In this document: piece after piece, positions 1,598-57,237 of the stretch
Position numbering within the stretch: the first letter of the stretch is position 1
How the letters are laid out: every line of letters starts with the position of its first letter
From: Marsupella aquatica
Taxonomy: Eukaryota; Plantae; Marchantiophyta
Assembly (NCBI GenBank): GCA_973895155.1
Contig: OZ316893.1
Coordinates: forward strand, 15,654,645-15,718,644
Direction of reading: 5' to 3'
Length of the DNA stretch: 64,000 nucleotides
Translations under genes and position numbers: made by a program
The notes under the pieces: model-generated
What the model saw: the letters and a program-made list of their open reading frames with translations, nothing else
Databases searched by the model: none
Told to the model about the DNA's origin: nothing

Positions 1598-3676
1598 TCA
1601 CGGATGCTCCAGAACCTTTGACTGTCCAAGTAGAGTGTGTAAGCAAATTGCTAGGCACATCGTCATGGCCACCAAAGCCTTCGATGCAGTGGCTTGGGCC
1701 AGCTCCCCTGTCTTATTAATTACACGTAAGACTTTGGCAGTACCTGCACTCCTTTCAGATACAGATCCTTTCTCTGCTTTACCTCGTAGCGTCTGTGATA
1801 CCTTGGAGAGCATTACATCAATCGTCGAGCGAATAGCTTCTGACGTCACCGTGCCAGCAACATCCAACACGAGGGCTCGGTTGCTTGGTACAGCTAAAGT
1901 CCGAGAGAATCCCTCAATCCACCCCTGGGAAATTTCGGAAGACTTTGTAGGAAAGACTACTGGCTTCCCATTAATCTGACGGTAGCTTGAGGACGAAAGA
2001 AGAGGCGCTTCCCCCTTGTCGAACTCACCGACTGGCATCTTCTTCTCACTCTGTGGAGAATGATCAAAAGCAATCCTCTTGCTTCCTAAACCAGAGAGAC
2101 TCAAGCTCTCCGAATCATGGCTATCCGGACTCCAAGGAGGTGGTGACCCTGGAGCCAAATGGTCATTCCCTCCATCACTAGTACCACACTCACCTGAAGC
2201 TCCACCGTCTGAATGATCCAACTGATTGAAGCAGCTATTCTTCCCAAGAGAAAAGGTCAAACGCCGGACATCACGACGAGAACCCAGTCCAAATTGTGTG
2301 GACTCCATGGTTTGACTTTGCTGAGGTGCGGACGAGGATGAGGCCACCGATAACACTTCATGAGATGCTCGAACCAAAGTTTCCAAGGCCCCGTTGCAGA
2401 CTGATGTCAGGAGATCCTTCACCGAATCTCTATGTGCAGGGTTAGCGACCGTGCTAAGAATTTCTTCGTAAATGTTGATGTCTCGAGTTTTGTCCAAATA
2501 AACTGAAACCGCCGTTCCTACAAAAGTCTCAATGCAATCCGCAATAAGGGACTTTCCCTTACTGCTACAAATAAATTTTATCATCCCGTCTTGGAGAGTC
2601 CCGGAAGCAGCAGGGGAAGACGTCGGCTTCTTGATAGCTTCCTCGCTGGTGACTCCATCCGTCGCCCTTGCCTTCGGCTGTGGATTCTTAGTGTCTTTTG
2701 CCTCCCACCTCATGGTTCTCAACATTTTGTCCCCTATAATGTTCGCATCGTCCTGGTTCATCTGTTGCATGCCCTCAAGCACAGAGAGGACAAGACTGCG
2801 AGTAGCACTTGCCACCACGACGGCGGCGAAACCCCGGCCGGCCTCGCTGAAAATCTTCCCCACCAGCCGTTCGGGAAGCCCTTCTTCCCTCCTTTCCATC
2901 CTTTCCCTCTTCGGAATTGGAGATCTACTCTTCCTTCTCCCACCACTGCCACTTGTCTCTGCAATTGATGCACCAGTCGGTGACCCACTCCACGCCCTCC
3001 CTACCCCATCCTCATCCTGCTCTCTCAGCCGACGCCCACCTTCTCCGCCTTCATTAAGAAATGCACTATCACCCTTCTCCAATTTTCCCCTCCTGTACTC
3101 GTGACTAGAGTTAACCTCACCTGCATCTTTGAGGTTTGGGGTATAGGCTTCCCCCAAAGATTCCTTCCATCTCCTTTCCTTCCTAAATTCCCTACCTGAC
3201 TTTCCAATCCTTTTGAATCCTTTTCGAGATGATAGCTCTTCAAACAAGGCCGACCCGTAATCGGCCCCGTCTTGCAAAATGGGGGCTTGTTGCTCGAGAA
3301 GACTACTTGCAACGCCTTGAGTGACAGATTTACACAAGAGAGCCACAATTATCTGGAATTCCCGGGTATGGCCTACTTTGAACAATTGCTTGAGGGATTG
3401 AGGTACTTCGTCCTCCTTGGAAAGAAGAAAAGAATGCAGGTCTTTCCACAATACGCCCACGCAGTCGCTTCCTTGAGCAGCAGACTCTAGCAGGGAGGAA
3501 AGAGAACGAAAGAATCGATACAATTGGAGCCGCTTGCGTGTGAGAGATGGAGAATTATAGACACGGTAAGCGACGTACCCCCCCGCACCGATTGCACAAC
3601 AGGCTAAGAGCAAGTTCCGTTGACGACGTGACGTCTGTGGGAACGGGAATGGGAGGAGGCTCTGGAGACTTTCCAT
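1598..3676 (-). CDS. PHLOEM PROTEIN 2-LIKE A10 family protein (At1g10150-like), 692 aa, single coding exon
   Basis: The N-terminus RRQRNLLLACCAIGAGGYVAYRVYNSPSLTRKR..KDLHSFLLSKEDEVPQSLKQL and the core GRGFAAVVVASATRSLV, GKSLIADCIETFVGTAVSVYLDKT, KDLLTSVCNGALETLVRASHEVL and LAVPSNRALVLDVAGTVTSEAIRS match the conserved blocks of this family as I recall them. Low-complexity insertions lie between the blocks. Confidence 0.85.
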   Translation of the reverse strand: MESLQSLLPFPFPQTSRRQRNLLLACCAIGAGGYVAYRVYNSPSLTRKRLQLYRFFRSLSSLLESAAQGSDCVGVLWKDLHSFLLSKEDEVPQSLKQLFKVGHTREFQIIVALLCKSVTQGVASSLLEQQAPILQDGADYGSALFEELSSRKGFKRIGKSGREFRKERRWKESLGEAYTPNLKDAGEVNSSHEYRRGKLEKGDSAFLNEGGEGGRRLREQDEDGVGRAWSGSPTGASIAETSGSGGRRKSRSPIPKRERMERREEGLPERLVGKIFSEAGRGFAAVVVASATRSLVLSVLEGMQQMNQDDANIIGDKMLRTMRWEAKDTKNPQPKARATDGVTSEEAIKKPTSSPAASGTLQDGMIKFICSSKGKSLIADCIETFVGTAVSVYLDKTRDINIYEEILSTVANPAHRDSVKDLLTSVCNGALETLVRASHEVLSVASSSSAPQQSQTMESTQFGLGSRRDVRRLTFSLGKNSCFNQLDHSDGGASGECGTSDGGNDHLAPGSPPPWSPDSHDSESLSLSGLGSKRIAFDHSPQSEKKMPVGEFDKGEAPLLSSSSYRQINGKPVVFPTKSSEISQGWIEGFSRTLAVPSNRALVLDVAGTVTSEAIRSTIDVMLSKVSQTLRGKAEKGSVSERSAGTAKVLRVINKTGELAQATASKALVAMTMCLAICLHTLLGQSKVLEHP

Positions 3677-6061
3677 AGCTACCTCTTCTCTTCTCGTAGT
3701 TGCGGTGCTGCTCGCTTCTGTTGCAGCGCTAGGAGGAATTCAACCTGGAGGGCTATGAGACCCCGCAGCTCATTGATGCAGCCAAGATCACAAATCTTCG
3801 TTTGTCAACCGGAGGTCGCAAACTGGCAAACTATGCAAATACAACAGGTCATTCATACCAGACACAAACGGGGACTTCAAACATTCGTTGTTTTCGCGGT
3901 TCCCGTTTCAACACGAGGAATAAAATTGGCCACCATTACACCACACAGCTGATTGAAAAACACACTAAGTTAACCTCCAGAAATCCTGTTCCCGAGCCCG
4001 CTTGGTTACAAAGAGTCCGTCGTCCCTCTGAAACCCTAATGCACCCTCAACCGAACTCTTGCCGTACCAGAGCTTCAAGAGGAGCAAAGCCGTAGCAGTT
4101 CTTCACAGACCTCTCCCAACAATCCCTGGAATTCCTAAAGAAAGAACAATCGCCCTCATAGCTTCGCCCCTCTACAACCGCACGTCTTGTTTTGTCCTCC
4201 ACCGGAATGGAGTGTAAAGGAAGCTCCGCTGAAGCTATCATAGCAAAGCGAAAACGCTTAACGCAACTCACGTCACATCACGTCGCGTCAGCGATCAGCT
4301 CAGCCAGCTCTGCATCGTCCTTCCACAGACGACAATCCACGGCTTCTTCGTCTGACCAAACTACTGTTCTCCGGGCAGTCTATCGCTCCTCCTCCGTCGA
4401 AACAACCATATACAATCCCTACTAACAAGAGGACGAGTCTGCTTCTACAGAACTGTGCTCCATTCAATCAACAGCAACTTCAAATTCTATAGTATCCCAA
4501 CCGGAAGATCATTAGGTCGTCGCTTCTTCATCTACCAAATTATTGAATGATAATCCCGGCGACGACAACGCCGAGACAGGGACATCGGCCTGCTGCTCTT
4601 CCCGGTTGTGGCATCTTTGATCAACTGATACAGACGATGGCGCTCGTCAGATTCGCTCCACGCGAGGGACGACTGCGGATGAGATGTCGTGCGAAAGAGA
4701 ATTCAGACATCTCAGAGTTGCAGAGGTCGCGTCCTCCCTCGGGGTTTCTGATACGCGTTCGGCCACTCGTTTTTGGAGCAGATTCCTATGAACATGGATA
4801 TTTCATATCCAGCTACCGACATTTCGCATTCACACAATGGATCATTCTCTGCCTCGAAGCGCATCTTCACCAAGCGATAGAAATCGAAGTTCCCCCATAA
4901 ATCTTGGGTGGGGCCAAAGTTCGTTAAAGTAGCAGTAAGTTTTCGTTCCCCAAACGTTTGGTACCGTAATAAGATGCGGTTGGAGAGCGAAACAGTAGTG
5001 TAGGTCCATCGCACGATGGGCCGAGTGTAGAATGAAATCTATGTTCAACTTGTCTCCGACTCTCCCGAGGTTCCTCGTGAGTCTTAACAACTTTACCACA
5101 TGTTTAAGTTGTACACGCGGCAGAGTGTTTCATTGAAGTGGGGCCAGTGCACTTTGTTTACCGTAGTGTAATCCGGGTTTGTGATTCTCCAACTATAATA
5201 TCCAATCCATTGTCCTCTTACAAAAATAGCTCCTCTTACAAAAACAGCTCTGACTGGGAACCATAAACAGCCTTTGGTTTTTTTTTTGCACTTTTTCTCT
5301 AACCATTCAATGCAAAAAGGTGCGAGGTGTTAGGATTTATTCTTAAGTCTAAAATTAGTAGTACCATAGTTAAGGCTAATCTTAGTTGCAAACTTGGTTA
5401 GATTAATCATGCTGTGCACACTCTATAACCAAGCGATGTTTGTTTGAAGAATGGGAACTTAGGTTCATTGTTATGCTTGCTGATTCGCAAAAAAAAAGGC
5501 AAGGCGCATATGGCTCTATGCTGGGCTCCCTATCCCCTCCATAGGGTTCATAGAAGCTATTCCGTGAGAGTTTTTCGGCTAGCTTGCCGTAACCTTGGTC
5601 ACTACTGTTACCCCCCATCCAGGTGCCCCTCGCGCACATGGTGCAGTTACACCTTATCCTCAGAGCACCCCTCCACGGAGCACCGCAATCGGAAGGAGCG
5701 CCTGAACATGGCGTAAATACGGTCCAGAGTCCGCATGTCAGAGCCACATTGGACGCCCCTGCTGCCGCCGCACCTTCGGAATCTATCGATGATTTGTGGA
5801 GAGCTTGGCTCGAGTCGTTTCAGGACCTTTGGGCAGCTTTCTTTATCCCACCGCCATGGACTCGATAGGCCTCTTTGAAGAAAAGCTCAAGCATGAGGTA
5901 ACGGGTGACAGGATTTTGAACCCGATATCGAACCAGACACACCATCAGGTAACCCGTTGATCTATTATACGTAGAAGGTCGGTCCCCTCCGACATGGGCT
6001 GCCGCACCCCCGCGCATATGCCGAAGCCTGGGTAAGCAAAAATATTTCTCTGTTTTTCTTT

Positions 6062-6104
6062 GGAGGTATGGCTGAGTGGTTGAAAGCATTGGTTTGCTAA
6101 ATCA
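6062..6104 (+). pseudogene. trnS-GCU: Mitochondrial-type tRNA-Ser(GCU) exon 1 (NUMT, truncated)
   Basis: GGAGGTATGGCTGAGTGGTTGAAAGCATTGGTTTGCTAAATCA closely matches the first 43 nt of plant mitochondrial trnS-GCU (anticodon GCT). It is followed immediately by GTGCG, the group II intron 5' consensus. No exon 2 was seen. Confidence 0.8.
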
Positions 6105-6300
6105 GTGCGACAAGAAACTGTGCAATGTAATGTGGTTCAATTCCACAGGATGTAACCCCCCGTCCTACCCAACCTGGACATGCGTCGGGAGTAATCTCGA
6201 GGTGTGAAGCTCTAGGGACAATGTAATGATGCTTGGGATTCCGTACCGAGCTAATGCTAGGGTGAAGAGACCGGCGGGTCTTCGCGTGCGGAAATCGTCA
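6105..6300 (+). other. 5' fragment of mitochondrial group II intron trnS-GCUi43g2 within a NUMT (end approximate)
   Basis: GTGCGACAAGAAA starts exactly after tRNA nucleotide 43. No domain V/VI or exon 2 is visible downstream. The flank at about 5480-6060 may also be mitochondrial, but this is unverified. Confidence 0.65.
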
Positions 6301-10257: not shown

Positions 10258-11624
10258 CTACAGCTACAGGAGAAGTCTCGTTATTATGCTCTCCACCTGG
10301 GTACCCTACTGTAGGGAGGGAACCCTTCCAGAGTTCAGGCGAAGAGCCAGAGGCGGCGTGGCGGGGAGTTCCACTAGTCTCGCTGACCGGAGATTCGTCG
10401 AAGGGTTGTCAATGATCCCGGACCTACGAGGAATCAAACAGGCGAACTCATGTCACGTGAGGGATGTTGAATATGTTGGAAGTAAATAGCGGATGAAGAT
10501 GACCTATCGCAACATGGAATTCCATTTTATCCTTCGCGGTTGTGCTCATGCGCCCGGCGGGTGGTGGAAGTCCAGTAGGTATGGAGTAGACGGCGAGGGT
10601 CGCTCCTGACGCTGGGCCTACTTAAAAGTTGTTCGCAGGAAGAAACAGAATTTTCGTCGGAGAAGGTTTGAATTATAGCATCTGAAGCAGAGCTTTGCAA
10701 AATACAGAAGAAGGATACAAGCTTTTCTTGGTGCATGCTGCTGGTCCTGCGCGCTGAGCTATCAGAAGAAGTGGGAGAGGCACCGCCGCGCTCCCACTTA
10801 TTGCGACGAAGGGAGCGATTCGACCTTAGATTTGACTTTCGAGCTGATTGCCTCGCCCGCGATTGAAGAAGGTATGCATACATCGAATCACCAGTCCGCA
10901 GGGAAACAAAGTGCTCTGCTGACGTTGTCATCACTTTTTATGAACCATTGATTGATATCCTGCCACAATTCCAACATCTGTATTCGAGTGGACTCTTTGC
11001 CTCCAGAGAAGTTGGAAAGTAAGGTTCACAATGTCCCGCATCGCATCGGGATTCTCGTATCTGCAAAAATGTTATATCTTCCTCCACTCAGCCATTCTAC
11101 TTATTTGGTTAATATTTCAATAATAGTGGAGACGCGCACCCTCTGTGCATAGGTTTCCGCCGTTGGTCATGTCGCTTCTCAGGAGCCGGCGTTTGCCACG
11201 TCAAGCTTGTAGCTTCAAGGGAAATGATATTGGGAAGAATAAAGAACTGCGGGCGAGGCACAAGCGGTATTACTGTAGGAGAAGAATCCCGCCGTGATCC
11301 TACTTCTTCTTTTTTGATGCTGCAGCAGTCAGCGGATTTTATTTACCAGACATTTGGTCCCTCCGCCCAGGAACAAGTGCAACGTTTGAGTTGATAATAG
11401 ATTTTAGGAGAATTGTACAGCTAAGAATTTGTTGTATCACAGTAAGGAGAGGCACTAGAGACTCACGAGTTTGAGTGGATATAAGTGTGCGAATTGCCAT
11501 TTCTTCGTTCTAGTCCGGAACTGGACGTGCATTTCGGAGGGGAACTGGTGTAGCTTGAGCGAAGCTCAATCACCTGTGAGTGCTCCTAAAATCAATCATA
11601 TTGTTGGGCTGAATTCAGGTTCTG

Positions 11625-14600
11625 ATGGCGCAAGCATGCATACCTCATTCCTCGTCAATAAGGTAAAATCCGCGTCCCTGTCATAAACCTATTTCGGGCT
11701 CACTGTGACTTTTACACTTCCAGAATTTCTATATCGCTCATGTCTGTGTCCCTCCACCTTCCTCCGTAGTGCGATTAATCTCAGTTTCAGCCATACTACA
11801 ATATATTCTATCAGCATGCAGTTTATCCTTTAGAATTTCCTACCGTTTGGCTCATCGTCGCTCTCCTGTGCTTACTTACTCGCTGGCAGTGGAGCATCAG
11901 TATCATCCCCTCGCTTGCTCTGGAGCCCTTCCGAAGCCCTCGAGAAACCGTGGAGAGCGTTGCAGGAAGTAATTAGGCTGTTGCTGGACAACTTTTAACT
12001 TCTGCAAGCCCTGCTCGGCATGATTCAATGACGCTGTTGCTGGATAACTTGTAACCTTCTGCAAGCTCTGTTCGTCTCGACTCCTTCAAATTCTTTATGG
12101 CCGTTTGCCTTAGTATTCCAAGATTGTAGGAGCATTCAGCTTAATTCAGGCGGTCGTTTTTGTAGATCGTCAATTTAGGGTAACATTATCGTAGTTGGAA
12201 AAATGTTCCCCTATGTTCCCTTGGATCTGCACAAAAGCGCCCCAATACGCCCTACTTTGCGATCCTCTCCCCTTTCATATCAACCATAGTGCCCTCTATC
12301 CAAAAACTTTCGCAAGTCATTCGTAGGGGCTTTACTTGTTCCCTGCAGCGTCCGTTTGCATGTTAGGACGGATGCCTTGAAGGCCTTGATCTCTACTGAA
12401 AGCTTGACAGATTGATAGTCCTGTCCCGAAATGTAGGTTCCCAGCATGTTGCACAAGGGAAATTAGTTATAACATTGCGTCCCTTGTCTTCGCTGCAGAG
12501 CGATCTCATTCCATGAACAAGCCTTTGGAAATGAAGCTCGCCCTTTCAATTTCTTGGAGACTTAATTAATTCTTATCTCTCCTCACCCACGGTCGTGGCT
12601 TTGCGCCGGCCTCTAGAGTTTCTTGTCAGCAAGAGCCTCCCTCTTAAAATGCCGATGAACCTCCCGAGTTACTGAGTGCAAGATTACCCACGCTGCGACA
12701 TGTCAATTCTTCTCTTCGTAGTCCCCAGTCATTTATGTCAGTGTAAGCCATGGAATGATTTCCTTGAATAATTACTTATTATGGAAGTTCTTTAGCAAGT
12801 TTCTTGGTTGGTGACGTTCCGAAACCTACCTAACCTAAAGTAGACGTCTTCAGGTTGGGTGGGAATTTGCTGTTTACAACTTTGAGGAAGGATGGCTCGC
12901 AACAACCGTCGTGGATGGTAAGCAGAGTTGCTATAATATCATAGAGTCCATGCAGTGGCTTCTGTTCGAGGAGAGGGAGACCTCATCAGAATTACTCCGT
13001 CTTGAAGAATCTATCGTTAGTTAACCTGCAACCTCCTTTGCAGACGACCAAATCTAGATTTTGGGGAAACGTCGAGATGCTTGGGTGTGGCAATCTATGC
13101 AGTTCTGGTCGTGGATTTTCTCTATCTGGAAGAGCAGTACCCAATGCTCACAAAGCCAGGTGCGGAATCCATTCGAGTGCTGTGCTGCAATTTGCTGAAC
13201 GCTTGTTATTGCATCTGTCCTCTTTTCCAGGCTTGCCCGTCCCTTAGTTTACCTACAAGATTCTATGATATGCTGTTAATGGTATGTACAAGTAAAATAT
13301 CTGTGGTACAGTACAAGCGTACCGTGAATGTTGGACATTAGAAGTTTCTTTCCCACCGTTCAGAATATGCGACAGGTGCTGAGCGAAACTTGATGACTTG
13401 ATCGATTCCTAACTTTTCTTGTGTTTCTTTGTTAACTCGTTGGCGTGTTGTGTTTACAGGGTTTCGTGCTTGTAATGTCTATTTTCTTACTAACATCTGC
13501 AAGTCTGCACATATGATGTAGGAATCGAGTTCCAAAACTAGTCAGTTCAAGTATTCGAGAGCCTCACCCAAGCAAGAACACAAGCGGTGGAAGTCAATTT
13601 TCAAGCTCGCCAAAAAAACATCAAACCATTTCTGATGGACTTACCCCGAGCAGTTCATCTGCCAGTGCAGCATCAGCCACAGTCCCAACTGTGCCAGTTG
13701 AGGTTGAGGAGTCTGGCCCGGAGTTTTCTATCAGGATGGATAATGAGTCCACTCCGGGCGTGTCTGTGATTGAAATTCAGGGTGTCGACCAGGAGAACTT
13801 ATTGGTTGATGTTACAAGCAGCTTCAGTGAAATGAGAGTAAGGCAAGTTTATCTGAGTTTGTCACTGTTTGACCTATGTAGTTCTGACCTTTATGCAAAC
13901 TATTCTTTCCTTTTCAGGACAACTTGCATATCACCAGTGCAATTGTCTTTCCTGGAATTCTCCGGGCTTGCTGGGACTCTCTGGATTGATGAAATAATTA
14001 CATGGCAAAACCTCTGATCCTTCGTATCTGATACATAAACAGTGTACAAAGTGCAAAAGTCCTTACTAGGAATGATCGTGTATTAGACATCTTCACTGTG
14101 GTGGATTCTGAGACGAAGGCAGCCCTAGATGAAGACCAGTGGCTGAAAGTCAAAGAAAAAGTACTCACCAAGTTGAAACGACGTAGAAGCATTCATGCAT
14201 CTAGAAACGATCCACTCCTTCTGGATCAGGTGCGCCAACATTCTCATCAGGTTGCTGCTACTGTGTACCATTGGCATTAGAAATGTATCTTGTTAAGTTT
14301 GATGTACAAATCAGATTGCAAACTGGATGTATCTGGCCAAATATCAAGTTTCCTTGGTCGCATTCTTTCTGTGCTCGAATTTTGTAAAGTTGGCTCGAGT
14401 GAATGCCTTGCAAAGGAAACATAAGTATCTTACAAATGATAGAGTTCAACTGGGAAATGGACAGGTGTCATTTCTCTGTTCAGCATTGGACAAGGTAGTG
14501 GAGGAACATGGCACTGCAGAAGTAGTTGAAGCCGTGAGTTTCGTTCCTCCTCTCGTTCCAGATCTGTTATTGTCTTTGGGCATCAATTTTATTGAAAGCG

Positions 14601-17600
14601 ATCGCGAGAGTGGTATATCCCTGACATGTTTGATTACATATGGATATGTTTAAGCCCTCTAATTTTCTGTGGAATTGGCTTTGCAGGCATATTTTCTTCA
14701 GAGCGGAATTGAATCTCTGAAATTCAATGAGGATCCTAGGAAGCGAGCGGATTTGCTGCGTTACGTTGATAACATGGAGCAATCAAAGGTAGAGTACTTG
14801 TTTCACATACTTAGTGACAGGACAATGTGATAGGTAGAGCAAAGAGCTGAGGCAGTTCTGGTGGATCCCTGACATACTTGGCTGATGGTTTCCAATCGCA
14901 GATAACTGGAGTCATAAGAATATTCTACCTTTATGCCGCACTTTTAAATGTAGCTGACGAAGCACACAGTCATCGTCAACGGCGGGAGCAGGTGCAGATC
15001 CTGAACCTTGCTGATCTTGTTAAAATGCTTTGTGAGACTTCTTATGTTGTATCACCTGAAGAGTTAAGGATGGAGCTATTGATGTCCGGGTGAAACAAAT
15101 CTGGAATTATTCATTACAGAAATGTGCTGGGAATGCTATGGCTTGTCGTCTTGGATAGAAATCTACACAGATTGGTGCAGGGAATGTGTAGGCGGTTGGG
15201 TTTGCATTGATGCATATTGCTCCTGTACAGGTGTGGGCTAGCCAACATGCCACGCCGTTATGGTATGCGTCTTTTGATCACACTCTTAGACTTTTTAAGA
15301 AAGCTGGTGTTAGTCCCAACGAGCTTCAGGAGCTTTTGGATCGTACTGAGGTGAGACAAGCAAGTCTAAGCTCTTGGTTCCTCCGAGCATTGAATAGCCA
15401 GTTTACTCCACTTCGTACCTTCTGTTAGTTGACTTAAGTGGATGAATGAATCGATATGAAGTTGTGATTTTGACAGATTCTACAGTGCAATTTTCTACGT
15501 TCATCATTCCTGTATCGCTTGAGGGCACGAACTCACCTGCCCGATAAAAGAAAATCTAACTAGTACTGAAGTACGCCCTTTTCAATCTTGCAGTACAGTC
15601 CAGTTTTTACAGCTCATCCAACAGAAGCTCGACGCAGAGAAATTCTCACCTGTCTGCACCGGATCTTTGACCTCTGCATCGCTAGAGAGGTTTTTCCCGA
15701 ATATGTTGAAAACCAAGTAGTGTGACGGCTTCATTTCATTCGTGATCACATTTGCGAATCTGCTAAGTCCAACCTTGTGTCGTTTGTACATACTATCACC
15801 ACAGGCGTTGGATGTCATGTTTCTTGAAAAGAGCGGAGAGATTTTACTGTTGGTCTATTGCGCTGTTAGTCCTACCTTCTATTTAATTGTGCCTAAATTA
15901 CTATACTTTCCTGGTGGTATTGAGGAGACAAGAATTGCTCACGTTGGAAATCATAAACATTTTCTAACAGGACCCAAGGCTGAGCCCTGCACAGAAGACA
16001 GAGATTGAAGCTGAAGTCGAAGCTGAGGTTGGATGATAGACTTACTCGGTTATCCCTGGGTCTTTACTTCCGTTTCATTGTTGCTCTGCTGTCTTATTAT
16101 TCCCCTTCATTGTTTACAGCTTGTGCAAGCGGGTGGTCGGAGCAATTTATGCTAGTTATGAGTTTTCTCTAAGCCTGACATTTTTTCGCCGAGGATCTTT
16201 GTACAAGGGCAGTTGCATGGGCACTTTTGTTCGGGCAAGATGTGCGTTGTTTACAGGGGCAATTGAAAGTAGAATCGTTTTGTTACTGGCAAGACGTTGC
16301 ACTAAGAGGGTGAAAAGAAAGGAACTGCATATTTATTATTTGATAGTCATGTTAATTCTGCTCAAACGGCCGCAGATTGAGATCTTGTGGAGGACAGATG
16401 AAATGCGCCAAACAAAACCAACAGTGATGGAAGAAATCATGACTGGTCTCGATTACTTCCGTTACTCCCTCTTTGAAGCTGTCTGCACTACTTACAGATA
16501 TGCTGAAAATTCACTGAAGGTACAATAGTTCTGTGTCTGAATTCCCTCAAGAGCATAAGCATAATTTGAGTGGAAACTCCGTCCCAAATACATTATTGAG
16601 CCGATTCAATGACTTTAAGACTCAGGGTGGATGATAAGCTTATCATTGCAATTTGGTGGATGAGGCAGCATGTTTATGGAGGTACGGTGGTACTTCCCAG
16701 TTTAATTAAATTTGGATCATGGATTGGTGGTGACCGTGATGGAAACCCTTATGGTAGGTCACAAGTTTCCTATGCATCGGGAAATGATTTTCGTTTGTTT
16801 TTAGCATCTGAAGTTTTCTCCTAATTCATTGAACCATAAGACGTTTGTGAACTCTCGCAGGTTCCTAAACTTTCTGGATGTCGTTTTGCTTCTTTTCTGA
16901 ATGCAGTGCTTCCAGAAACTACTGTTATGGCTGCCCTTCTTGCGAGTAGGCTGATTGTTGCTGAGTACATACGACGGTGTCGCGCCTGTCAGGTTGCTGC
17001 TTTTACTTGCTCGATCTTTCTACAGAGATGACATCCATTGACCGTCTCCTTCTTTCTCGTATTCCCTTCTTAGTTTAGTGCGGCAAAGATTTTCTCGTTG
17101 TCGTTGCATACTGCAATGACTACTGTCTACTTTTTGTGCTGAAATCCATACGAATTCTATTTTTGGATTTGTTTTTATCAACAGTGTAAAAAACATTCAA
17201 AATTAGCTGGTTTAAGTAAGTCATCTTGAGCGATCATGGAAATGTTTCCACGGAACAAATTTCTCCCAATAACTAGGGTTTTAAGAAGCATTTCATTATC
17301 GCAGTCTCTATACTGCTTGTTGTAAAGTGATCATAGACATGTCAGGTTACAACTGTCGTATGACACAAACTATTAAGATGAAATCGTTAGTTGTATTTGC
17401 TGTAGGAAAAATCAACTATCTATTCAGTCATCACGCCTGAGACTTCTGTCTTGTTGTACTGATTCTTTTGAGGTTCTCGCAAATTTCATGGATGTTACAG
17501 GACACATTGACGCAGTCATTGCAAATCTGCAAAGTATCACCACAATTGCTGGAAAGTCTAGAAGAAGACAAAAAGATTATTGAAAAGATCCCTACCCTTC

Positions 17601-20600
17601 GACATCAAGTCGGTGCGTTTGAACAGGTGCTTATTAAGACCGGGTCCGACAATTGTGTTGGTCTCTCTCGAATCTAATTCTCCTGCCTGGCATTGTCAGC
17701 TGGAGGTTTCTAACCAGTAGTATGTTTTATTTCAGGAACCTTACCGCCTAAAGTTGCGAGTAATGCGACATCGTCTGGAGCAGATGCTTCGAACTGTAAA
17801 TGCCCTCTTACGCAAGTTGGGTGGAACTAACCTAAGTGATGAGGTAAACTTAAGCTGGATTTCTTGCTTGTATATCGTATTGCAACAGTTGGAGAGTTGT
17901 CCGTTCTAGACTTCTTGAAGATAGGTTGTCTTTTCTCTGGATATTTGAGGATTGCAATTTTCCCTTTCCTTTCCAGTATTGGAGTTATTGTTCCGCGTAT
18001 CTGGCAAAATTGAATAGAAATAACGTGTAAACTTTGTGCAAATTTTGGTCCAGTTGCTGATTGACATTGAGTACAATATAGATCAAATACCTGGGCTTGA
18101 TCCCAAGGAGGATACGTATGCTGACGAGCGAGGTTTTCTACATGACCTCAAATTGATTGATGTGAGTTTAGTGTTCTCTCTGTATGGGAATTAAACTGAC
18201 TTCCCTTGAATGGTGGAAGGACTCCCTATTTAAAATGCATTCGCAATAGTTTAAGCATCCCGTCTCGTCCAATTGATCAGGATGTAGTTATAGCATAATG
18301 CAAGAGTTTCTCTCCACAAACGGACTCAATTGTCAGGATTCTGTTGTATGGTCTGCAGCGATCGTTGAGAGAAAGTGGGGATGTGCGACTGGCTGATAGC
18401 AAGCTTAAGGATCTGATCCGACTAGCAGAGACTTTCGGATTTCATCTGACTTCTCTGGATGTCCGGCAAGAGTCTACTCTGCATACAGAAGTGCGTGCTC
18501 AATGCTTTCTGTTTTGTGGACATGACAACTGGTAGAAACAAATTAGTTTAACTTTACTTGACAAATTACAGAGTATTATTGTGCGCAACTGCTTCAGATT
18601 TGCTTTGATGTGTTCCGTAAAGTAATAGATGACGTCTAAATTCTTGGGCAGGCTACTGCAGAATGCATGAAGCTTCTGGGCTTTGCAGAAGACTACAAGT
18701 CGTTACGTGAGGAAGAGAAGATGGCCACACTTGCAGAAGCTTTGGCCAAGCCACCTCCTGTTGACAAGGTTGAGGTAAGTGAATAAAACTATTACTTTCT
18801 CAATCAGGCATCTGCTAATGGGCTTATGGACGATGATCTGTGTATCCTAGCTGACAGAAATGTTTTGCAGGGCTTACTGAAGACAGTGTCAGATTCAACC
18901 CGTGAGGTTCTTGGAATCTGCAGTGCTTGTGCGGAAATCATGGACACCATCGCTCCTAAAGCTATAGCATCCTATGTTATTTCTATGACGCGTTCAGCGT
19001 CAAATGTCATGGAGGTGAGTCTTTCCAACGCTTTCATTTATGTGTGCTTTTGTTTTTGCAGATAAATGTTCTATAAAGTTACTTCCCGTAACAGATCTCC
19101 TTTGCTCTGCAACATTCTGTGTTACGCAGGTATTATTTTTAGCATGGTTCACATGTCAAGGCCTAATTGGAAAGACATCGTCCGGTGAATGGAAAGCCAA
19201 CATGGTGGTTTCCCCATTGTTTGAGACAATTCCTGACTTGGAGGTACTGTATTATATCGAGCCTACTTGATCAGGCTGTAGTTTTACCTAGGCCTCTCTG
19301 TCGTGAGGATCTATCAAATCTCTGAATCGCAGCAATTGTCATCTACCGGGAGTTGATGAGGTGGATGGGGTCGATCTGATTCAGAACATGCCCGGAGCAC
19401 TGGAGCTTCTGCTTGAGAACAACATTTATAAAGAAATCTTGGAGGCATCTGGTGGTGTCCAGGTGCGTTGTCAACGACCCTGTAGTCTGACAATTCTTAT
19501 GCGGGTAATGTAATTGTCAGGAGAGCGTTGGTTGACAAAATAGTCTTTATCTGGTAATTTCTCAATTACTAATCCAGGTTCATAATAAATTACAAATAAT
19601 GCAAGCATCCCTGGCAGGTCGGTACAATCTTTTGAGAGTGCTCGTGTTGCTTTGCAGGAAGTCATGCTGGGTTACTCCGACTCATGTAAAGACGGAGGTA
19701 TCTTTGCCAGTGCTTACAATCTGTACAAAGCTCAAGAGGTGATTCAAAGGATCACAAACAAGGCAGGAGTCAAGTCCCGCATATTTCATGGGCGTGGTGG
19801 CACAGTTGGGCGAGGAGCGGGCCCAACCCATGAAAGTGTCCTTGCGCAGGTATCAATTTTGGGTTGCCAGTCTTCTCTCAACTTCTGTACAGGGGTGTGA
19901 CAAGGATTAATGGTATATTGCAATTTTTTGGTGTTTTGTAGTTTGTGAGGAGAGATTCTCAGAAGCGGTCCTTCGAGCTTGTGGTCCTATGTGGGAAAGC
20001 CTCCGACGCCAGCTAGGACTGCATTCCTAATGTTCATGATCTCGTTACAGCCACCCGGGAGCGTTGATGGCAAAATTAAATTCACGGAGCAAGGCGAAGT
20101 CATCACATATCGTTACGGCAACGCTCCGACAGCAACCTATGAGCTCACGGTGGGTCTTGTCAAAACTAGGACCCTCAGTTGGCGACGCTTTCGTAAGTCG
20201 TCAATGTAGGGAATTTTTTTTTAAATTCTGATGAGGTCATATGATTCCGGAAATTAGACTGCGTTGCTCTTTTCATTCAAGATTCACCAGAAATACATAT
20301 TAGACAGGAATGTTGCTGTTCGGAATTACGAAAAATCGGCGCAGACGTTCTTCGCGTTCACGGCGTAATATTTGTGTTTGTATTTTGCAGGTTGGTATTA
20401 CTGGCCTCCTCAAAGCCAGTCATCCGACTACACGCGCAGAGGTGGTGGACAACCAGAAGGTCTGTGCCCTCACATTTGGAATTTTAAAAGTTCAATGTTC
20501 CCACTGAGGTTTTTGATAATGGCTGTTTGTCTTCTCTATATGCGGTTTGTACTTTGTAGAGTTAACACTTGGATGTGGGCGGCTTGCAGTACTTCCAAGT

Positions 20601-22030
20601 TATGGATGAGCTAGCAGACCATGCAGAGAAGCACTATCGAGGATTGACTGACAACACGGAAGGCTTTTATGACTACTTCTATGATTGTACTGTGGTGAGC
20701 GAAATTGGGCTTATCAATATCGGTAGTCGGCCTACCCGACGGAAAGCTGCTGTCCGTGATAAGACGTCCTTGCGAGCCATTCCTTGGGTGTTTGGATGGG
20801 CACAGGTAGGGTCAAGAACTCTTGATGTGAGTCGAGAAAGTCGATCATCTTGACGAGGACATAAATGTAGCTAAACTAATCAATAATTCGTGCCTTGATA
20901 CCCGCCGTCTTCATTACATCGGGAAGTAGCTGAAGAGACAATTTCGGAATCTAGGAGCCTTTTTGATTTGACGGTACTGCTGTCTGGCTGGCAGTCTCGG
21001 CACACGCTTCCGGCTTGGTATGGAGTTGGCAGTGGTATACTTGGATACACTCAAAATGATCCTAGTCGTATTCAGGAGCTTCAGCGAATGTACATTGAGT
21101 GGCCATTTTTCCGCAATTTTCTTTCGAATGTCCAGGTATTAAAATCAAGAACATCTCGTCATTTAGCTCAGCAATTCAAAGGACTCGCGTTGCAGAGACG
21201 TCCTCTCTAGGACTGCACTGCATTTTAAGATTTCGCATCAGTTAATAGTTTTGTCCTCTGCAGATGTCGCTCTTCAAGGCATCCATGGAAATTGCACAGG
21301 AGTATGCCAGACTTTGCAGGTTAACCTTTTTGTCCACACCCCCATCCCCCTCCGTCTCTCTCCTCTTCTTCCTCTTCTCCCTTATCCTGGCAAGTGCATT
21401 GTCACTCATGGATCTCAAGCCATGCAGATCTTTGATTGTACTTCGCTGCTTTAGCCTGCCTAACGTGTGTTCTGTTCATCAAATCGCTCTTGATTGCAGT
21501 AACCGAATCACAGAAAGACTGGTCTACGATTTGGTTTCCCAAGAGTACTCCTTGACGATAGAACAGGTACATCTCTCAAGGACTACAAGATATAAGCAGC
21601 TTTAGTCATTGGAATTCCTATTCATTTGCGACTCTCTTCAAACGACAAGTGACGCTAGAACGCTCGCCTCAGGATTCTACCCGCCTGTGCAGATTTTGAT
21701 GATTTCGCAACAAAATGCACTACTCGAAGATAACGCAGGATTGCAGAGATCGTTCAACACTCGCCGGAAATATCTTGATCCTCTCAATCACATTCAAGTG
21801 AGTTTTCGTTTCTGGCTCATACTAACTTGAAGTTTGCAATAAATAATTTGTGTTGTATTAATTTCCTAGCTGGATCGTCATTTGACAATGGTCGGCTTAT
21901 TGGCTAACAGGTGATCTTGTTGGGGAGAAGGAGAGATCCAACTGCGTCTCAGGAACAAGTCTTAATCTGGGAAAAACCATTGCTGCGAACAATAAAAGCC
22001 ATTGCTAGCAACATGCGAAATACTGGATAG
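11625..22030 (+). CDS. ppc: Phosphoenolpyruvate carboxylase with putative plastid transit peptide and N-terminal ACT domain, about 1190 aa, 31 coding exons
   Basis: Hand-spliced, phase-consistent exons: 11625-11662, 12854-12917, 13044-13159, 13522-13842 (GC donor), 14043-14229, 14465-14533, 14687-14788, 14902-14991, 15231-15350, 15594-15689, 15971-16027, 16376-16519, 16669-16753, 16907-16992, 17501-17626, 17736-17843, 18054-18161, 18359-18490, 18652-18774, 18871-19014, 19130-19243, 19385-19462, 19658-19849, 20051-20149, 20391-20459, 20590-20805, 20995-21135, 21264-21319, 21500-21566, 21693-21797, 21911-22030. PEPC motifs: [97 protein letters not shown] and C-terminal MRNTG-stop. The first three exons are less certain than the rest. 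Confidence 0.93.
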
Positions 22031-23450
22031 GTGCTCATTTGTGGAATTGGTGACTACTCGTTTCCACTGCTCTTACTGTCCTGCCAACCTGCTCTCACAG
22101 AAGAATGTTCTCCTCCACTCGACTATGAAATCACTGGAATGTCTCGTCTAGCTCTTTGAGGTGATCTGGACGGTTTTTGAAATCTCAGAATATCAATTAA
22201 GTCTGGTGAACAATTTTACAAAGTTGTTCAGGAGGATAGATCGAGATCAGGAGTAACTCATTTTGGTGGATCGGGAAAATCAAATTCACGATCTCCGTAT
22301 ACCCGGACCTTAAGTAAGAATGTTAACATTAATGACGATTGTTTGATTGCCCAGGCCACACGACATTTCTTGCATCGTAAATGTGGAAACGCCTCTACCA
22401 GGGAACCTGGAGCCGCGAAAATACCCGGAGATGAGCCAGGCATACAGACGGTGAAGGTGAATGTCCGTAAAACCGTACATTCAAATGGGTTCCTGGCGAG
22501 CTTGCTGTAGGATTAGCACCCGTGCTGGAATGCGTCGTAATCGGAGTATTGTTGGGGGCATCAACTGGAAAAGACTTTCGTAGCTCAAGTTGGGTCCCTT
22601 CTGTTGTCCAAGAAGATATCAATCGTCTGTGATTTGCGGAACTGTCTCCCATCCTGTTGCTTCCTAAACCACTGTTCTTGTTTGGATGTGCCACTCGGGT
22701 CACCCATGACAGGTGTTACGCTGTTACTCTATTTATCTGCCATGTAATCGTTTGGGAGATCTCACATGTATTTTAAGCCAGTTTTCGGAGAGTGAAATTT
22801 GATTATCTTGGCAGCTGGTAGTCTTTAAGTGAAATTTCTTTCTGGTTTACGTTATAGGTAGATAGCAGAAAGATGCCACCTCTCGAAATGGCTCCTACTG
22901 CCATTTTGAAAATTCACGCAGAACATTGAACTCCTCTGACCCGACGCCTGGCCAGAAATTGCCGGTAGTATGTAATTGAAACGTATGAAGGATGTTTTCA
23001 TATGAGTCGTGTTAGTATTGAAGAATAGTTGATGGAGGTGTCATTATGTCCACTTTTTCAAAGAAAGTGGCGCAGTCACAGAGATAGGTGCTTGTTTACT
23101 CCGCAACCCAAAAAGCTCTTTGTATGCAGAGTTCTCTCGAGATGATGACGAGCTTAATTATCCACTCACTGCCTGTGGTTTCCAGTAAAGCCCAAACGGT
23201 ACTCATGTACTTTAATGCTTGATTAAACGTGACCATGGTTTTCATTAAGCTGAAATGGTTATAAATTGTATAACTCTTACGTGATACTGCACTGGTTGAT
23301 GTATATTTGGTTCTTTGTACCTACTGGAATAATTCATTAGTTTCAAGTTTCTGGATATCCACCTGGGGATATCCATGTGCTTAATCCTCATCGGTAGCTT
23401 TAGTTGTTTTTTCCTGACTGCCCTGCCATTTTTGGAACGCACCGGTGAGA

Positions 23451-23606
23451 ACCATACATACAACATGGGGAAATTAAGGGCTTTGTCACAGGATATCCGA
23501 CCACCATACATACAACATGGGGAAATTAAGGGCTTTGTCACAGGATATCCTACCACCATACATACAACATGGGGAAATTAAGGGCTTTGTCACAGGATAT
23601 CCGACC
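23451..23606. repeat. Minisatellite, 3 x 52 bp, near-perfect
   Basis: ACCATACATACAACATGGGGAAATTAAGGGCTTTGTCACAGGATATCC(G/T)ACC at 23451, 23503 and 23555. Confidence 0.95.
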
Positions 23607-24524
23607 TTTCAAATCGGGTGGTCTCCATGGTCTCCATAGCTCCCATTGCATTAAAGAAAGAAGTTATATTTACACTTGACCTTAAAAGCTTTGAAGAATA
23701 TTAAACCATCAAATTGACATTCCCAACAAATTCACTAGAGTAAAAACTCTCTGTACAATATGTATCAGAAGCTAATTTCAGTCTCGTTTTTTTTAATTTG
23801 ATTTTTTTTTAAGGGGCAAGGCTCTGGAAACTTAGAACTAAAAGCGTGGATGAACTATCCACTGGTAGGTTGTCTATGAAATCCCCATGGACAAACCAAA
23901 AATGGACTTGATTCAAACACACATATATGCTTGGATATTATGTTTTACACTTGTGTACAAAAATACCCTGATTGTCACTTCTGTCCAACTATCCAAAAGT
24001 ACCATGTCAAAGCACCATCTCTATCCATTTTTGTCCAAGGGTACCATGTACCATCATTGATTGCAAGCCTAGTTGTATTCTCTTAATATTCTATTCCCTC
24101 AAACTAGTAACTTTAATCATTTTCTTAGAGTTCAATAAAAATAATAAATATGTAAGGTATGTTTAGATATTTGTAGGCCTTATCTGGCCTTTATGGTAAA
24201 TAAACTTATGTGTAGACTAAGCTCTTCACAATTTACTCATAGCCCCTCAAGTAGTTTGTTCAATGAGCAAAAGCAAAATTAATTCATTTTTTTTCAAGAA
24301 TATTTTTATGTTTATAGTAGATCGCAAAACTCCCACAAAGGGGGAAACAAGCACCACAATGGCCCGTGAACCAATATACAATTTCCACTAGGAAAGCAAG
24401 GGACAAATCTTCATTTTCATAGAGAATTGCTCTTGAGATGGAATACTATTTTGCATAGTGTTGCCCTTGTGTTAAGGAGGGGTTTGACTTATTTTCTTCG
24501 AGCGCGGGTGGCCTTGTCAACCTT

Positions 24525-34007: not shown

Positions 34008-35728
34008 TCACCTCAAGACAAGATGGTCTATTATTTCAAAATGCATTTGCAAATCTGGGGGCCTCTCACTGAAGTAAAGCCTTTCATTGACTTGAAGTTT
34101 ACCACCTCCATACTTACGAGCAGCCTCCTTCAACAACTGAACGCAGCGGTTCTTCTCCATTACAACCCATCTTCGATTACTATCTTGCCACTGGCGTGGG
34201 GTTCCATGGATTCCAACATAGAAGCCGCCACCTCTTGACCTTGCAGCTTTTGCCAGCCCCTCGAGCACTCTAGGGTCCGTCTGATATGCACCTTGACAAT
34301 TCAACCCAACATCCACATAATGAACCTCTTCAATACTGCTGAGAAAGGCTTCTACGGTAGAAGGTAGTAGTTGGCTTTTCTTCTCTTCTTCGGGTCCTCC
34401 TTTTCTACTCACCTTGTCTTGTAAACTGAATATTTTAAGTCTATGGTCATCATGAGAATTTAAGGACTCCTCGTAATGTACAATCTCCGCTAGCATTTGA
34501 TTGAGGATGACTCCGCCCTTGCTGAAGCCCAAAAGAATCATGGGTGGGCATTTATTCACCAGATCTCGGAAGGGTTCAAAGGGAGATGCCTTTTGTACAC
34601 ATTCATCAGAGCTGCCGTTTTCCTTTCCTTGCAACTCAGCAACTTTGCCATCTTTATGCTTCTCCCGAAGCTGTGCAGCTTTTACCTTCAAGAGAAACAA
34701 TGAAGTTCAACATTAGGAAAAAGAGGGATATTCACGCACAGTATTTTCTGCCTCAATTGACGAGGAAGAGTAAATAGCCAATTCCGAGTAGACAGAGAAA
34801 GGTCTCATCGGGCAATGCTCGTTGGCCAGTACCAGTTGTTACTGTAGAGCCTCCAATGTACATATTTTTGCACAAAGATATTATCTGCGTAAGCCAATCT
34901 TGGAGAAAAGGAAACCAACTAATACTGAGCCAACTATCTGTCACTGCAAATGATACCCCTGTCCTATCCTCTGTGATTTGACTACCGACTCGTACACGTG
35001 AATTGAGGCAGATGATACTCTTCAGTACAATCTTCCATTACATGATTTAGCATAAAGAGATTGATAACCTGCGTAAGACAATCTTGGAGGATGGAGAAAC
35101 AGGCCCGAGCTGCAGGTAAGCCTTTGGGTTTGTAACCTATGGGTTCTCCAGATGCAGTCAAGCTAGGTAAAATGTTTTCATAGCAGGCAAATGGGCCCTT
35201 GTAAACTGACGCTTCCATGATCCACAAGTTCACAGGTTGTTGGCCAAGCTTGGGAAGCAAGGCTGCTGCAATGTTCTCCAAATGCGAGAGGCGTTCCACT
35301 ATTGGATTTGCGGACTCCCTCACTCGATCTCCCACAAAGAATATAACATTGCTTGCCGGCTCCTGCTCTCTACCCCACAAGACCAGCAATCCACATGCCG
35401 AACATTGTTTCAATTACAACAGTGTGCAAGTCGTTGCTTCTTTGACAGTAGACACAGAAAATTTGCAACATCACAATCACGAAATTGACTAAACCCTAAG
35501 AAAATGAAATCACATTTTTGTGTGCAATCATACTGGACAGGGCGAGAAAGGAAGGACAGGGACAGGAAAACAACCAGGGACAGGGCGAGAAAGGAAGGAC
35601 AGGGAGGGAATGAGTCAAACCACAAGAGAGCCCGAAGAAGTGCATGCCAACGAAGCCAAAACTCGGAATCCATGGCTGCTGCTGCTCCTAAGATTCAAGA
35701 CTCCTTTCCATCGTTGTGCCGTAGCCAT
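34008..35728 (-). CDS. C2orf69 / UPF0565 family protein, 3 exons, about 359 aa
   Basis: Exons 35728-35621, 35362-35069 and 34685-34008 (phase-0 introns) give MATAQRWKGVL..FRVLASL..EPASNVIFFVGDRV..GPFACY..GEPIGY..LLGFSKGGVILNQ..VHYVDVGLN..HGTPRQW..LQMHFEII, the family motifs. Confidence 0.88.
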
Positions 35729-55598: not shown

Positions 55599-57237
55599 TT
55601 GGATTTTATGTTGGGTTGCAAATGAATTGCATGTTGTAGTTGGATGAGGTGGTGCTTGCTTCTTTGCAAGATGTGCTCCATACGCACAATCCTTATGTGC
55701 TGATGTTCAAAAATGCCAGGAGCCCCATTGATGATGTTGAGGTGTCTCAGGTTTTGCTACGTCTTGTAGTTGAACATGACACCAACCCAAGACGTTACAA
55801 TAAACCCATGGCGGATGAGATTGGTGTGATCATGGTTGGGGATGAGGATATTGAAACACGTGGTTGAGATATTATCCTCAAGACAAGGGACGGCGGCCTA
55901 CATAGGATTTTGGAGTGGCATAGGTCATATGCTCCTCTCCATTATGTCTTACTCTTTTTGCATGGTCAAGACGGGTGGTCTTATGACATCCCATTGGTGG
56001 GCCATGAATTTCAAGACGCGGTTACTGGGGCAGTTCAACCCCAAGCAAGTGGTGGACGCAATGGCTCCAAGAAGGTTACACAACTACAATACTATGCGTT
56101 ACTTGCTACATGCAAGGCAGGGTGATGATTGACTGCTTTGTGGAGGGAAATTGCTAAAGCAATATATTGTGGACGGGTATGCATGCATAGATCAAATGCA
56201 ACTGACCTATATTTGCAACAATAAAAAAAAGTTGCGCACAGAACTATATCAAGGGCTTCAAGATGTAGTTCAAGACAAAGATGGACGTGCAGATGATGTA
56301 ATTATATAGGGCCTACATTTTGCCATCCTCATATGGGGGTAGTGCCCGCAATATGATGCAGGCATACCAAGACGCCATGGTCATTGTACGCACATATGGT
56401 CCCCCTGACCTTTTACCACATTTACGTGCAATCCTGAATGGCCAGAAGTCAGAGCAAAGTGCTACCCTTATCAGACCCCGGCCGACCAAGATGACATTGT
56501 TGCTCAAGTGTTCAAACTCAAGTTAAAGGCATTGTTGGCGGTCATTTGTGCAGGGGTCTTAGGTAGACTTGTTGCCTCTATGTATGTCATTGAGTTTCAA
56601 AAGAGGGGATTGTCATATGCACACATTTTGATCAAATTGGTTGAACGCCATAAACTACGCACGCTAGAGTTGGTTGACCAATGAGTCCTGCAAAGATACC
56701 AGACGTGCAGGTGTATCCGCAATTATTTTAGACTATAACAAAATGCATGGCGTACAATGTAGCAAGGGCTACATGAGACTATTCTCAATTGAAACAGTTT
56801 TGGGGGATGGTGGGTATCCCATGTATCGATGTCAAGATGATGGACACAATTTTACAAAGGACCAAAGCAAGTTTAAGTTTGATAATAGGTGGGTTGTTCC
56901 TTATAGTCCATACTCGAGCATGAAATACAGCGCTCCTATTAATGTGGAAATATGTTGCTCTATCCAAGCCATTAAGTACTTATATATGTACTGCTACAAA
57001 GGGCATGATAAAGCAACACGGGAAGCAACAATGGAGGTAGAGCAACGTGATGAAATAAAAGAGCATTTAGATGCTAGGTACGTGTTTGCTATAGAAGGAG
57101 TATAATGGTGGATTAATCAGTTTGAAATGTCAAAGAGTAGTACTTTGGTGCAACGGCTACAGGTGTCGGGATAGGTGCATTGTGAGGGGGGACAATTGAT
57201 TATGTTTCATGAAGATTCTGAGATCATTGATGTGGTC

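Follow-up and report, generated by a model that had tools for sequence, protein, structure and literature searches.

Plant phosphoenolpyruvate carboxylases (PEPCs; EC 4.1.1.31), which are central and much-studied enzymes, are divided into two classes, plant-type (PTPC) and bacterial-type (BTPC), in several papers (PMC4196954, PMC11397392, PMC9358456), and the accessible text of two of them uses a QNTG C-terminus as the PTPC criterion (PMC4196954, PMC11397392). Yue et al. 2012 (PMC3493653) listed a Physcomitrella PEPCase (GI 168029489) that grouped with proteobacteria, giving Gammaproteobacteria as the donor and 'Moss' as its distribution; for the moss copy, the transfer of such a gene into plants has thus been known since 2012. 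Here we describe a gene of the same enzyme class and the same donor group in the liverwort Marsupella aquatica. It lies on the + strand at 11625..22030 of a 64,000-nucleotide window, which is the whole stretch analysed (contig OZ316893.1, positions 15,654,645 to 15,718,644), and its coordinate-built model has 31 coding exons and 30 introns for a 1190-residue protein consisting of a leader, an ACT domain and a PEPC core (ACT-PEPC). The explanation that we consider probable as a whole is a gene of bacterial origin, spread through the green plants, encoding a plastid PEPC under ACT control.

The Physcomitrella copy, for which no Arabidopsis homologue exists, is very likely the orthologue of P0374 in our set. 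It was reported as moss-only and possibly recent, and the accessible portions of that report make no mention of an ACT domain, a leader or algal members. Proteins from Marchantia and Spirogloea and the 1179-residue protein from Physcomitrium appear in the available text of Shu et al. 2022 (PMC8784020) as 'PEPcase superfamily', excluded from the two-class analysis. A paper on Suaeda (PMC8435749) shows, in its accessible part, a separate moss 'BTPC' branch with 32 exons, which is probably orthologous to ACT-PEPC. Surveys of the family have left these genes out or, it appears, placed them in BTPC. The accessible full-text literature searched, a body that excludes subscription journals, yielded no report of a third PEPC that is fused to ACT or directed to plastids, and the age, range and domain architecture of the lineage appear unreported there. 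The clade may already be named, as Deng et al. 2016 reportedly divided the green-plant PEPCs into three subfamilies, of which 'PPC-3' may be the present one.

Phylogenetic position and range of the lineage

The catalytic core shares 46-49% identity with most sampled gammaproteobacterial PEPCs of the sulfur-oxidiser type, about 35% with the cyanobacterial and 30-31% with the PTPC enzymes. With BTPC, 37-40% identity is confined to the C-terminal half. When a single exon or the core of the orthologue from Calypogeia fissa served as query, a group of eukaryote type came first and gammaproteobacterial PEPCs second; the named bacterial neighbours include Sulfurivermis, Thiohalobacter, Thioalkalivibrio, Thiohalomonadaceae, Chromatiales and Thiotrichaceae. 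An earlier sequence-only reading had judged the core to resemble proteobacterial more than plant PEPCs, which these values bear out. Its suggested donors fared differently: a sulfur-oxidising gammaproteobacterium agrees with the named close matches, all sulfur-oxidising or unclassified Gammaproteobacteria, whereas a methylotroph or a betaproteobacterium was rejected, as none is named among them and the two sampled betaproteobacterial PEPCs fall outside the clade at about 33% identity.

When the 50%-cluster representatives were scanned exhaustively, the top match outside the clade reached 886 bits, and the one recognised cyanobacterial-type match 449. The class of a Thiothrix-labelled genome was represented by 300 genomes, 178 of which gave a match; this tally includes the unpublished genome G044, which contributed no sequence to the analysis. 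Many of the matches show 45-50% identity and the others about 30-38%; this search measures frequency, not the identity of the donor. A peptide-pattern scan of GTDB gave 8 loci only and did not recover the closest relatives, and blastn against Escherichia coli genomes gave no match. One 1321-residue PEPC representative (P0226) carries about 435 extra N-terminal residues that are unrelated to the ACT profile of the clade, possibly another fusion.

Three trees agree on the placement of the core. The FastTree phylogeny of 222 rows was built with 10 of the 30 loci of the class-level search and 6 of the 120 matches of the cyanobacterial search; representatives shorter than 860 residues were omitted, and the one empty row (Metabacillus) was left out afterwards. 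All 23 green rows form one clade (support 1.0) inside a 71-row clade of the gammaproteobacterial subfamily (1.0), PTPC and BTPC group with the enterobacterial row, Proteus, and the cyanobacteria stand apart. A quick IQ-TREE search on 44 rows under LG+C20 with posterior mean site frequencies (PMSF) gave 100 in the Shimodaira-Hasegawa-like approximate likelihood ratio test (SH-aLRT) both to the green clade and to its union with the gammaproteobacterial subfamily. With 35 rows and 878 columns under LG+F+G4 and ultrafast bootstrap, the same two groups received 100/100, and so did the grouping of BTPC and PTPC with Proteus-type enzymes, far from the green clade.

Signature motifs were counted in 23 green rows, 48 rows of the gammaproteobacterial subfamily, 12 cyanobacterial, PTPC or BTPC rows and 138 others. 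SDSCKDGG occurs in 22 of the green and 40 of the subfamily rows and in 1/150 elsewhere, and KFTEQGE in 23/23 green and 37/48 subfamily rows, with 0/12 and 4/138 in the remaining sets. Also diagnostic are a 15-residue motif and SRHT-PAW-G. Two characters are specific to the green rows, namely a GRG[A/S]-P loop (22/23) and an insertion near residues 603-620 (16/23), both in 0/198 of the others. The motif AHPTE, which had been contrasted with AHPTQ of the plant enzymes, was rejected as diagnostic, since it is present in 6/6 cyanobacterial and 120/138 other rows. The sulfur-oxidiser PEPCs (Sulfurivermis, Thiohalobacter, Thioalkalivibrio, Thiohalomonadaceae) thus share with the liverwort core its identity level, 23 residues of signature sequence and one fully supported clade; they differ in length (about 930-950 residues), in lacking leader, ACT domain and the insertion, and in having a GRGGGP loop.

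Members of the green clade were named from Calypogeia, Riccia, Marchantia, Physcomitrium, Ceratodon, Sphagnum and Diphasiastrum among the liverworts, mosses and lycophytes, and from Spirogloea, Mesotaenium, Coleochaete (a fragment), Chlorokybus, Mesostigma, Pterosperma (Chlorophyta) and Prasinoderma among the algae; several marine transcriptomes contributed further members. A hornwort entry, AANG007402, has the same domain signature in a published table, from which its membership is inferred. Neither a fern nor a seed plant is among the named matches of these searches, which by itself does not prove loss. Within the clade the streptophytes are monophyletic, mosses and liverworts each fall together, and the branching broadly tracks species relationships, the order of the deepest algal branches being weakly supported. 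Mapping the presence of the gene, as had been proposed, thus showed it to be far older than the bryophytes. Because orthologues are found in each of the three green-plant phyla, the gene was likely acquired before green plants diversified, and from these sequences we hold a pan-green age with considerable confidence. Two copies, 98% identical, are present in Calypogeia fissa, and two more divergent ones in Ceratodon.

Gene structure and protein domains

Assembled from its exon coordinates, the coding sequence is open over 1190 codons with no internal stop, and 29 of the 30 introns have GT-AG and one GC-AG borders. Along its full length the modelled protein shows 90.8% identity to P0001 of the leafy liverwort Calypogeia fissa, and it is 74% identical to the Marchantia and Riccia proteins. 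Splicing was examined in contigs of run X1, from a relative, which we take to be RNA. Among the joints listed, at least 24 of the 30 modelled introns are skipped, and three further introns have joints with few letters between. One 3061-nt contig keeps a constant offset of 556 nt to the modelled coding sequence at exons 3, 12 and 20, indicating that leader, ACT domain and core lie on one spliced molecule. A pseudogene was ruled out by the open frame and the spliced contigs. The GC-AG intron (intron 4, 13843..14042, + strand) splits the ACT domain; it corresponds to a 200-nt skip in X1, and a 28-residue insertion stands at the same site in a Spirogloea model. Two different spliced contigs of X1 lie on the gene (13520-19243). 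Others lie upstream of the start codon (10700-10871, with a loose-end consensus resembling 10820-10850) and downstream of the stop (22030-22540, with a 70-nt skip at 22221-22292), which suggests an untranslated first exon and structure in the untranslated regions.

The introns had been put forward against contamination, and this was confirmed: 25 of them lie inside 14465..22030, the other five upstream in the leader and ACT region, and the spliced contigs agree. Gaps and insertions in the Mesotaenium and Spirogloea models mostly end at intron positions of the window gene (567, 683, 772, 810, 836, 933, 956, 1116, 1151 and the GC-AG site), so that many introns appear to predate the land plants. 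Phase 0 accounts for 25 of the 30 introns (p 0.002), the plant average being 57%; this excess sits in a gene whose core introns must postdate the transfer.

The leader (11625..13720, + strand) comprises about 139 residues from exons 1-3 and the start of exon 4, and is a putative plastid transit peptide with linker. Its first 60 residues hold 22% Ser plus Thr and 3% Asp plus Glu, compared with 13% and 14% in the core, and a Ser/Thr-rich, acid-poor start is also found in most full-length orthologues. In the Calypogeia model, disorder extends over residues 1-131, with a predicted local distance difference test score (pLDDT) below 50. Composition and disorder fit a transit peptide, and the plastid is the probable location of the enzyme as judged from these features.

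The ACT domain follows at about residues 140-225 (13721..14178, + strand). Residues 142-233 of the Calypogeia model form a confident small beta/alpha domain of ACT-type topology. Of 15 proteins of the green clade that were scanned, 14 match ACT-type Pfam models, in most cases below the curated cut-off; PF01842 is above cut-off in Mesostigma and below it in most others, P0001 included, and one Spirogloea model carries an insertion within the region. The same scan gave no match to one further row that lacks the ACT domain, nor to the four controls, which were bacterial, BTPC and PTPC sequences. Against GlnD models, the match of P0001 lies in their C-terminal ACT region, with E from 6e-11 to 9e-5. 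A profile built from the clade matched clade members only among 9540 targets made up of proteins and locus frames, the best bacterial E being 0.023. The Mesostigma segment gave only weak matches to PDB sequences (best E 0.33), and ACR-type Atlas matches scored below 0.9 and are leads only. These predictions identify the domain as an ACT domain of GlnD/ACR type. Its likeness to the C-terminal ACT of GlnD and to the plant ACR proteins rests on the GlnD match and the ACR-type Pfam and Atlas leads; it differs in being a single ACT joined to a carboxylase, and either a plant ACR or a bacterial GlnD is a candidate source. Leader and ACT are common to chlorophyte and streptophyte members and missing from the Prasinoderma models: P0547 and a 70%-identical relative begin just before the core, with no leader and no ACT match, which suggests that the fusion came after the transfer.

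The core itself spans residues 243-1190 in exons 6-31 (14465..22030, + strand). PF00311 matched 9 of the 12 exon pieces of the window that were scanned, and P0001 scored 900.7 bits with PF00311 and 835 bits with PRK00009 (cut-off 815). The predicted Calypogeia structure has a predicted template modelling score (pTM) of 0.81 and a PEPC fold, superimposing on Arabidopsis PPC1 (8oj9) with a Z score of 43.8 and a root-mean-square deviation of 2.5 over 889 aligned residues. All 12 short motifs picked out in the sequence-only reading are present in + strand frames at 15255-22016. Residues H377, R675, E804, D844, K847, H880, R888 and R1018 align with the PTPC and Proteus rows, and we take these His, Arg, Glu, Asp and Lys positions and the loop Arg to have catalytic or metal-binding roles. 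Exon 10 (15594..15689, + strand) holds TAHPTE with the presumably catalytic His377, followed by an Arg pair. Exon 23 (19658..19849, + strand) holds a 10-residue motif with Asp844 and Lys847 and a 13-residue loop with Arg888 and Ala890, and exon 24 (20051..20149, + strand) holds the KFTEQGE signature common to the gammaproteobacterial subfamily. The enzyme is very likely active as a PEPC.

Exons 28-31 (21264..22030, + strand) carry Lys1080, Arg1140 and Asn1188 of the malate/aspartate site, together with Ser1136 and the terminal RNTG. The site, which also includes R888, was mapped through an alignment with the 3zge chain, the site residues and Flaveria numbering being those in the accessible text of PMC3586729; Arg888 occupies the position of Flaveria Arg641, the 884-equivalent is Ser1136 and the 774-equivalent is Gly. 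The site Lys and Asn are kept throughout the clade, and the R1140 position varies in Pterosperma-like members. The GRGAGP loop and the retained Lys, Arg and Asn are as they had been described from the sequence. No SIDAQ-type N-terminal phosphorylation site was matched in the modelled protein, which ends in RNTG; in both respects it resembles BTPC, whose C-terminus is (R/K)NTG. Such an end is common to most bacterial PEPCs and is therefore not diagnostic of BTPC. PTPC has the same fold and the same malate-site residues, but differs by its QNTG end, its SIDAQ phosphosite, the absence of an ACT domain and its low identity.

The rest of the window holds several other features. Organelle-like DNA at 6040-6290 (+ strand) contains an Rfam match to group II intron D1-D4-7 (6146-6289, E 3e-8), directly preceded by a stretch that by eye resembles part of a tRNA-Ser, for which ARAGORN reported no tRNA; the segment probably entered the nuclear genome from the mitochondrion. 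An intronless frame of 713 codons at 1598-3739 (- strand), without a Pfam match at E 0.01, resembles plant PP2-A10-like proteins. Exons of a C2orf69-family gene lie at 34008-35413 (- strand; PF10561, E 7e-14). The frame at 56668-57105 (+ strand) has no Pfam match and resembles, by a motif, a Helitron helicase fragment, and three tandem copies of a unit of about 55 nt lie at 23451-23610, downstream of the PEPC gene.

Origin and function weighed

Grouping of the green clade with PTPC, BTPC or cyanobacteria, which the sequence-only reading had named as contrary evidence, was rejected by approximately unbiased (AU) tests on 28 rows. A gene of the cyanobacterial plastid ancestor, moved by endosymbiotic transfer and retargeted to the plastid, would match the pan-green range and the transit-peptide-like leader typical of such genes, and both AHPTE and RNTG also occur in cyanobacteria. 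It is nevertheless very unlikely, given the rejection of that grouping (p 3.7e-4, with 2 cyanobacterial rows), the low identity, the absence of SDSCKDGG and KFTEQGE from all six cyanobacterial rows and the lack of any red alga or glaucophyte named among the top matches; the weak point of this argument is the narrow cyanobacterial sample. A fast-evolving paralogue of plant BTPC is just as hard to credit. The RNTG end, the missing phosphosite, the PRK00009 score above cut-off, two coinciding PTPC introns and the published moss 'BTPC' branch speak for it, and AtPPC4 likewise has many introns. However, BTPC lies on another branch of the family with PTPC and Proteus-type enzymes, green plus BTPC had p 1.4e-5 (2 BTPC rows) and green plus PTPC plus BTPC p 1.7e-11, 0/8 mapped BTPC intron positions (8 loci, residues 580-906) match introns of the window gene, the nearest being one codon off, and BTPC has AHPTQ and GYSDSGKDAG and lacks an ACT domain. 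Marchantia, moreover, has separate PTPC and BTPC entries besides ACT-PEPC. Membership in PTPC or BTPC was rejected on the trees and the AU tests and, for PTPC, on the RNTG end and the missing phosphosite.

The green clade and the gammaproteobacterial subfamily could instead be sisters with an unsampled donor, or the gene could have passed from an alga to bacteria. A bacterial subfamily that is monophyletic to the exclusion of the green clade is not rejected by the Shimodaira-Hasegawa (SH) test (p 0.23), and the internal branches of the subfamily are weak; the AU test rejects it (p 0.009), the subfamily has diverse members, is frequent in the sampled class and lacks the green-specific loop and insertion, and the deeper outgroups are all prokaryotic, so we regard this as improbable. 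Bacterial contamination, or a recent transfer specific to liverworts or mosses, is in accord with the 'Moss' distribution given in the accessible part of Yue et al. (PMC3493653) and is still practically negligible: contamination is excluded by the 30 spliceosomal introns and the spliced contigs, and one clade extends over 14 named green-plant genera.

Several points weigh against the transfer, fusion and targeting that we favour. Nesting within the bacterial subfamily is favoured by the AU and not by the SH test, so that the direction of transfer rests partly on distribution, and the closest gammaproteobacterial sister is weakly placed in the 35-row tree (88/42). The AU tests used fast LG+F+G4 searches under a site-homogeneous model, the cyanobacteria are six similar sequences, and the 4 PTPC and 2 BTPC rows are metagenome open reading frames classed by motif. 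Two of the 11 mapped PTPC intron positions (residues 265 and 420) coincide with introns of the window gene, which speaks mildly against independent origin and which we read as parallel gain. The Prasinoderma-type models may be truncated or may have lost the domains, and the leader may instead serve mitochondrial or dual targeting. The ACT motif is DxPGLL-like in algal members (DKPGLL, NRPGLL) and DQENLL in land plants, so that the land-plant domain may bind its ligand differently or no longer bind one.

Taking these together, we regard a gammaproteobacterial origin of the core as very probable on the sequence evidence, and the old horizontal transfer with later fusion to a transit peptide and an ACT module, as the sequence-only reading had it, is supported by the trees, the AU tests and the domain scans. 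We propose that a gammaproteobacterial PEPC gene was transferred into the green-plant ancestor and that the leaderless, ACT-less form would have been retained in Prasinoderma-like algae. Fusion to a transit peptide and to an ACT domain of GlnD/ACR type would have followed before the chlorophyte-streptophyte split, introns would have been gained by the ancestor of zygnematophytes and land plants, and the gene would probably have been lost in seed plants.

After plastid import, the enzyme might carboxylate stromal phosphoenolpyruvate to oxaloacetate for ammonium assimilation and the aspartate-family amino acids, by analogy with rice Osppc4, a transit-peptide PEPC supporting ammonium assimilation (as cited in the available text of PMC9358456). 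Osppc4 is proposed as a functional analogue, its plastid targeting having arisen within monocots. The ACT domain would sense an amino acid, glutamine being a first guess, or dock a partner, and would thereby replace the phosphorylation near the N-terminus by which plant-type PEPC is controlled. The ligand and the physiological role are guesses by analogy, and nitrogen-linked control through the ACT domain is a tentative suggestion, with the odds slightly against it. A different role for an enzyme of the same origin, in C4-like carbon concentration or a malate valve, or at a mitochondrial site, and with ACT serving for assembly or docking instead of nitrogen sensing, is the less likely course. 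C4-like cycles have been proposed for early-branching green algae, and Ser rather than Arg at the 884-equivalent hints, by analogy with the enzymes in the accessible text of PMC3586729, at weaker malate inhibition. Docking would suit the degenerate ACT motif of land plants, and the chloroplast regulator ACR11 is described in the available text of PMC4944146 as acting on ferredoxin-dependent glutamate synthase (Fd-GOGAT) by direct protein interaction. A stromal PEPC beside Rubisco would, however, presumably compete for inorganic carbon and not concentrate it. The gene also persists in liverworts and mosses, for which we know of no C4-like cycle.

Returning to the plastid enzyme under ACT control, its wider form is one that we put forward as speculative: a third green-plant PEPC present since the origin of the group, gammaproteobacterial in descent, which, once equipped with a plastid transit peptide and an ACT domain that senses amino acids, might have coupled anaplerotic carbon fixation in the stroma to the nitrogen status of algae, bryophytes and clubmosses, to be lost in seed plants and functionally re-invented by the grass enzyme Osppc4. 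The ancestral green-plant toolkit changes once it includes a third PEPC lineage that arose separately, bears a fused regulatory domain and is likely plastid-located, and the transfer described as 'moss-only' shifts to the base of Viridiplantae. The orthologues in Marchantia (MARPO_0030s0078) and Physcomitrium make the lineage directly testable, and an allosterically different, stroma-adapted PEPC would be of interest for the engineering of carbon fixation.

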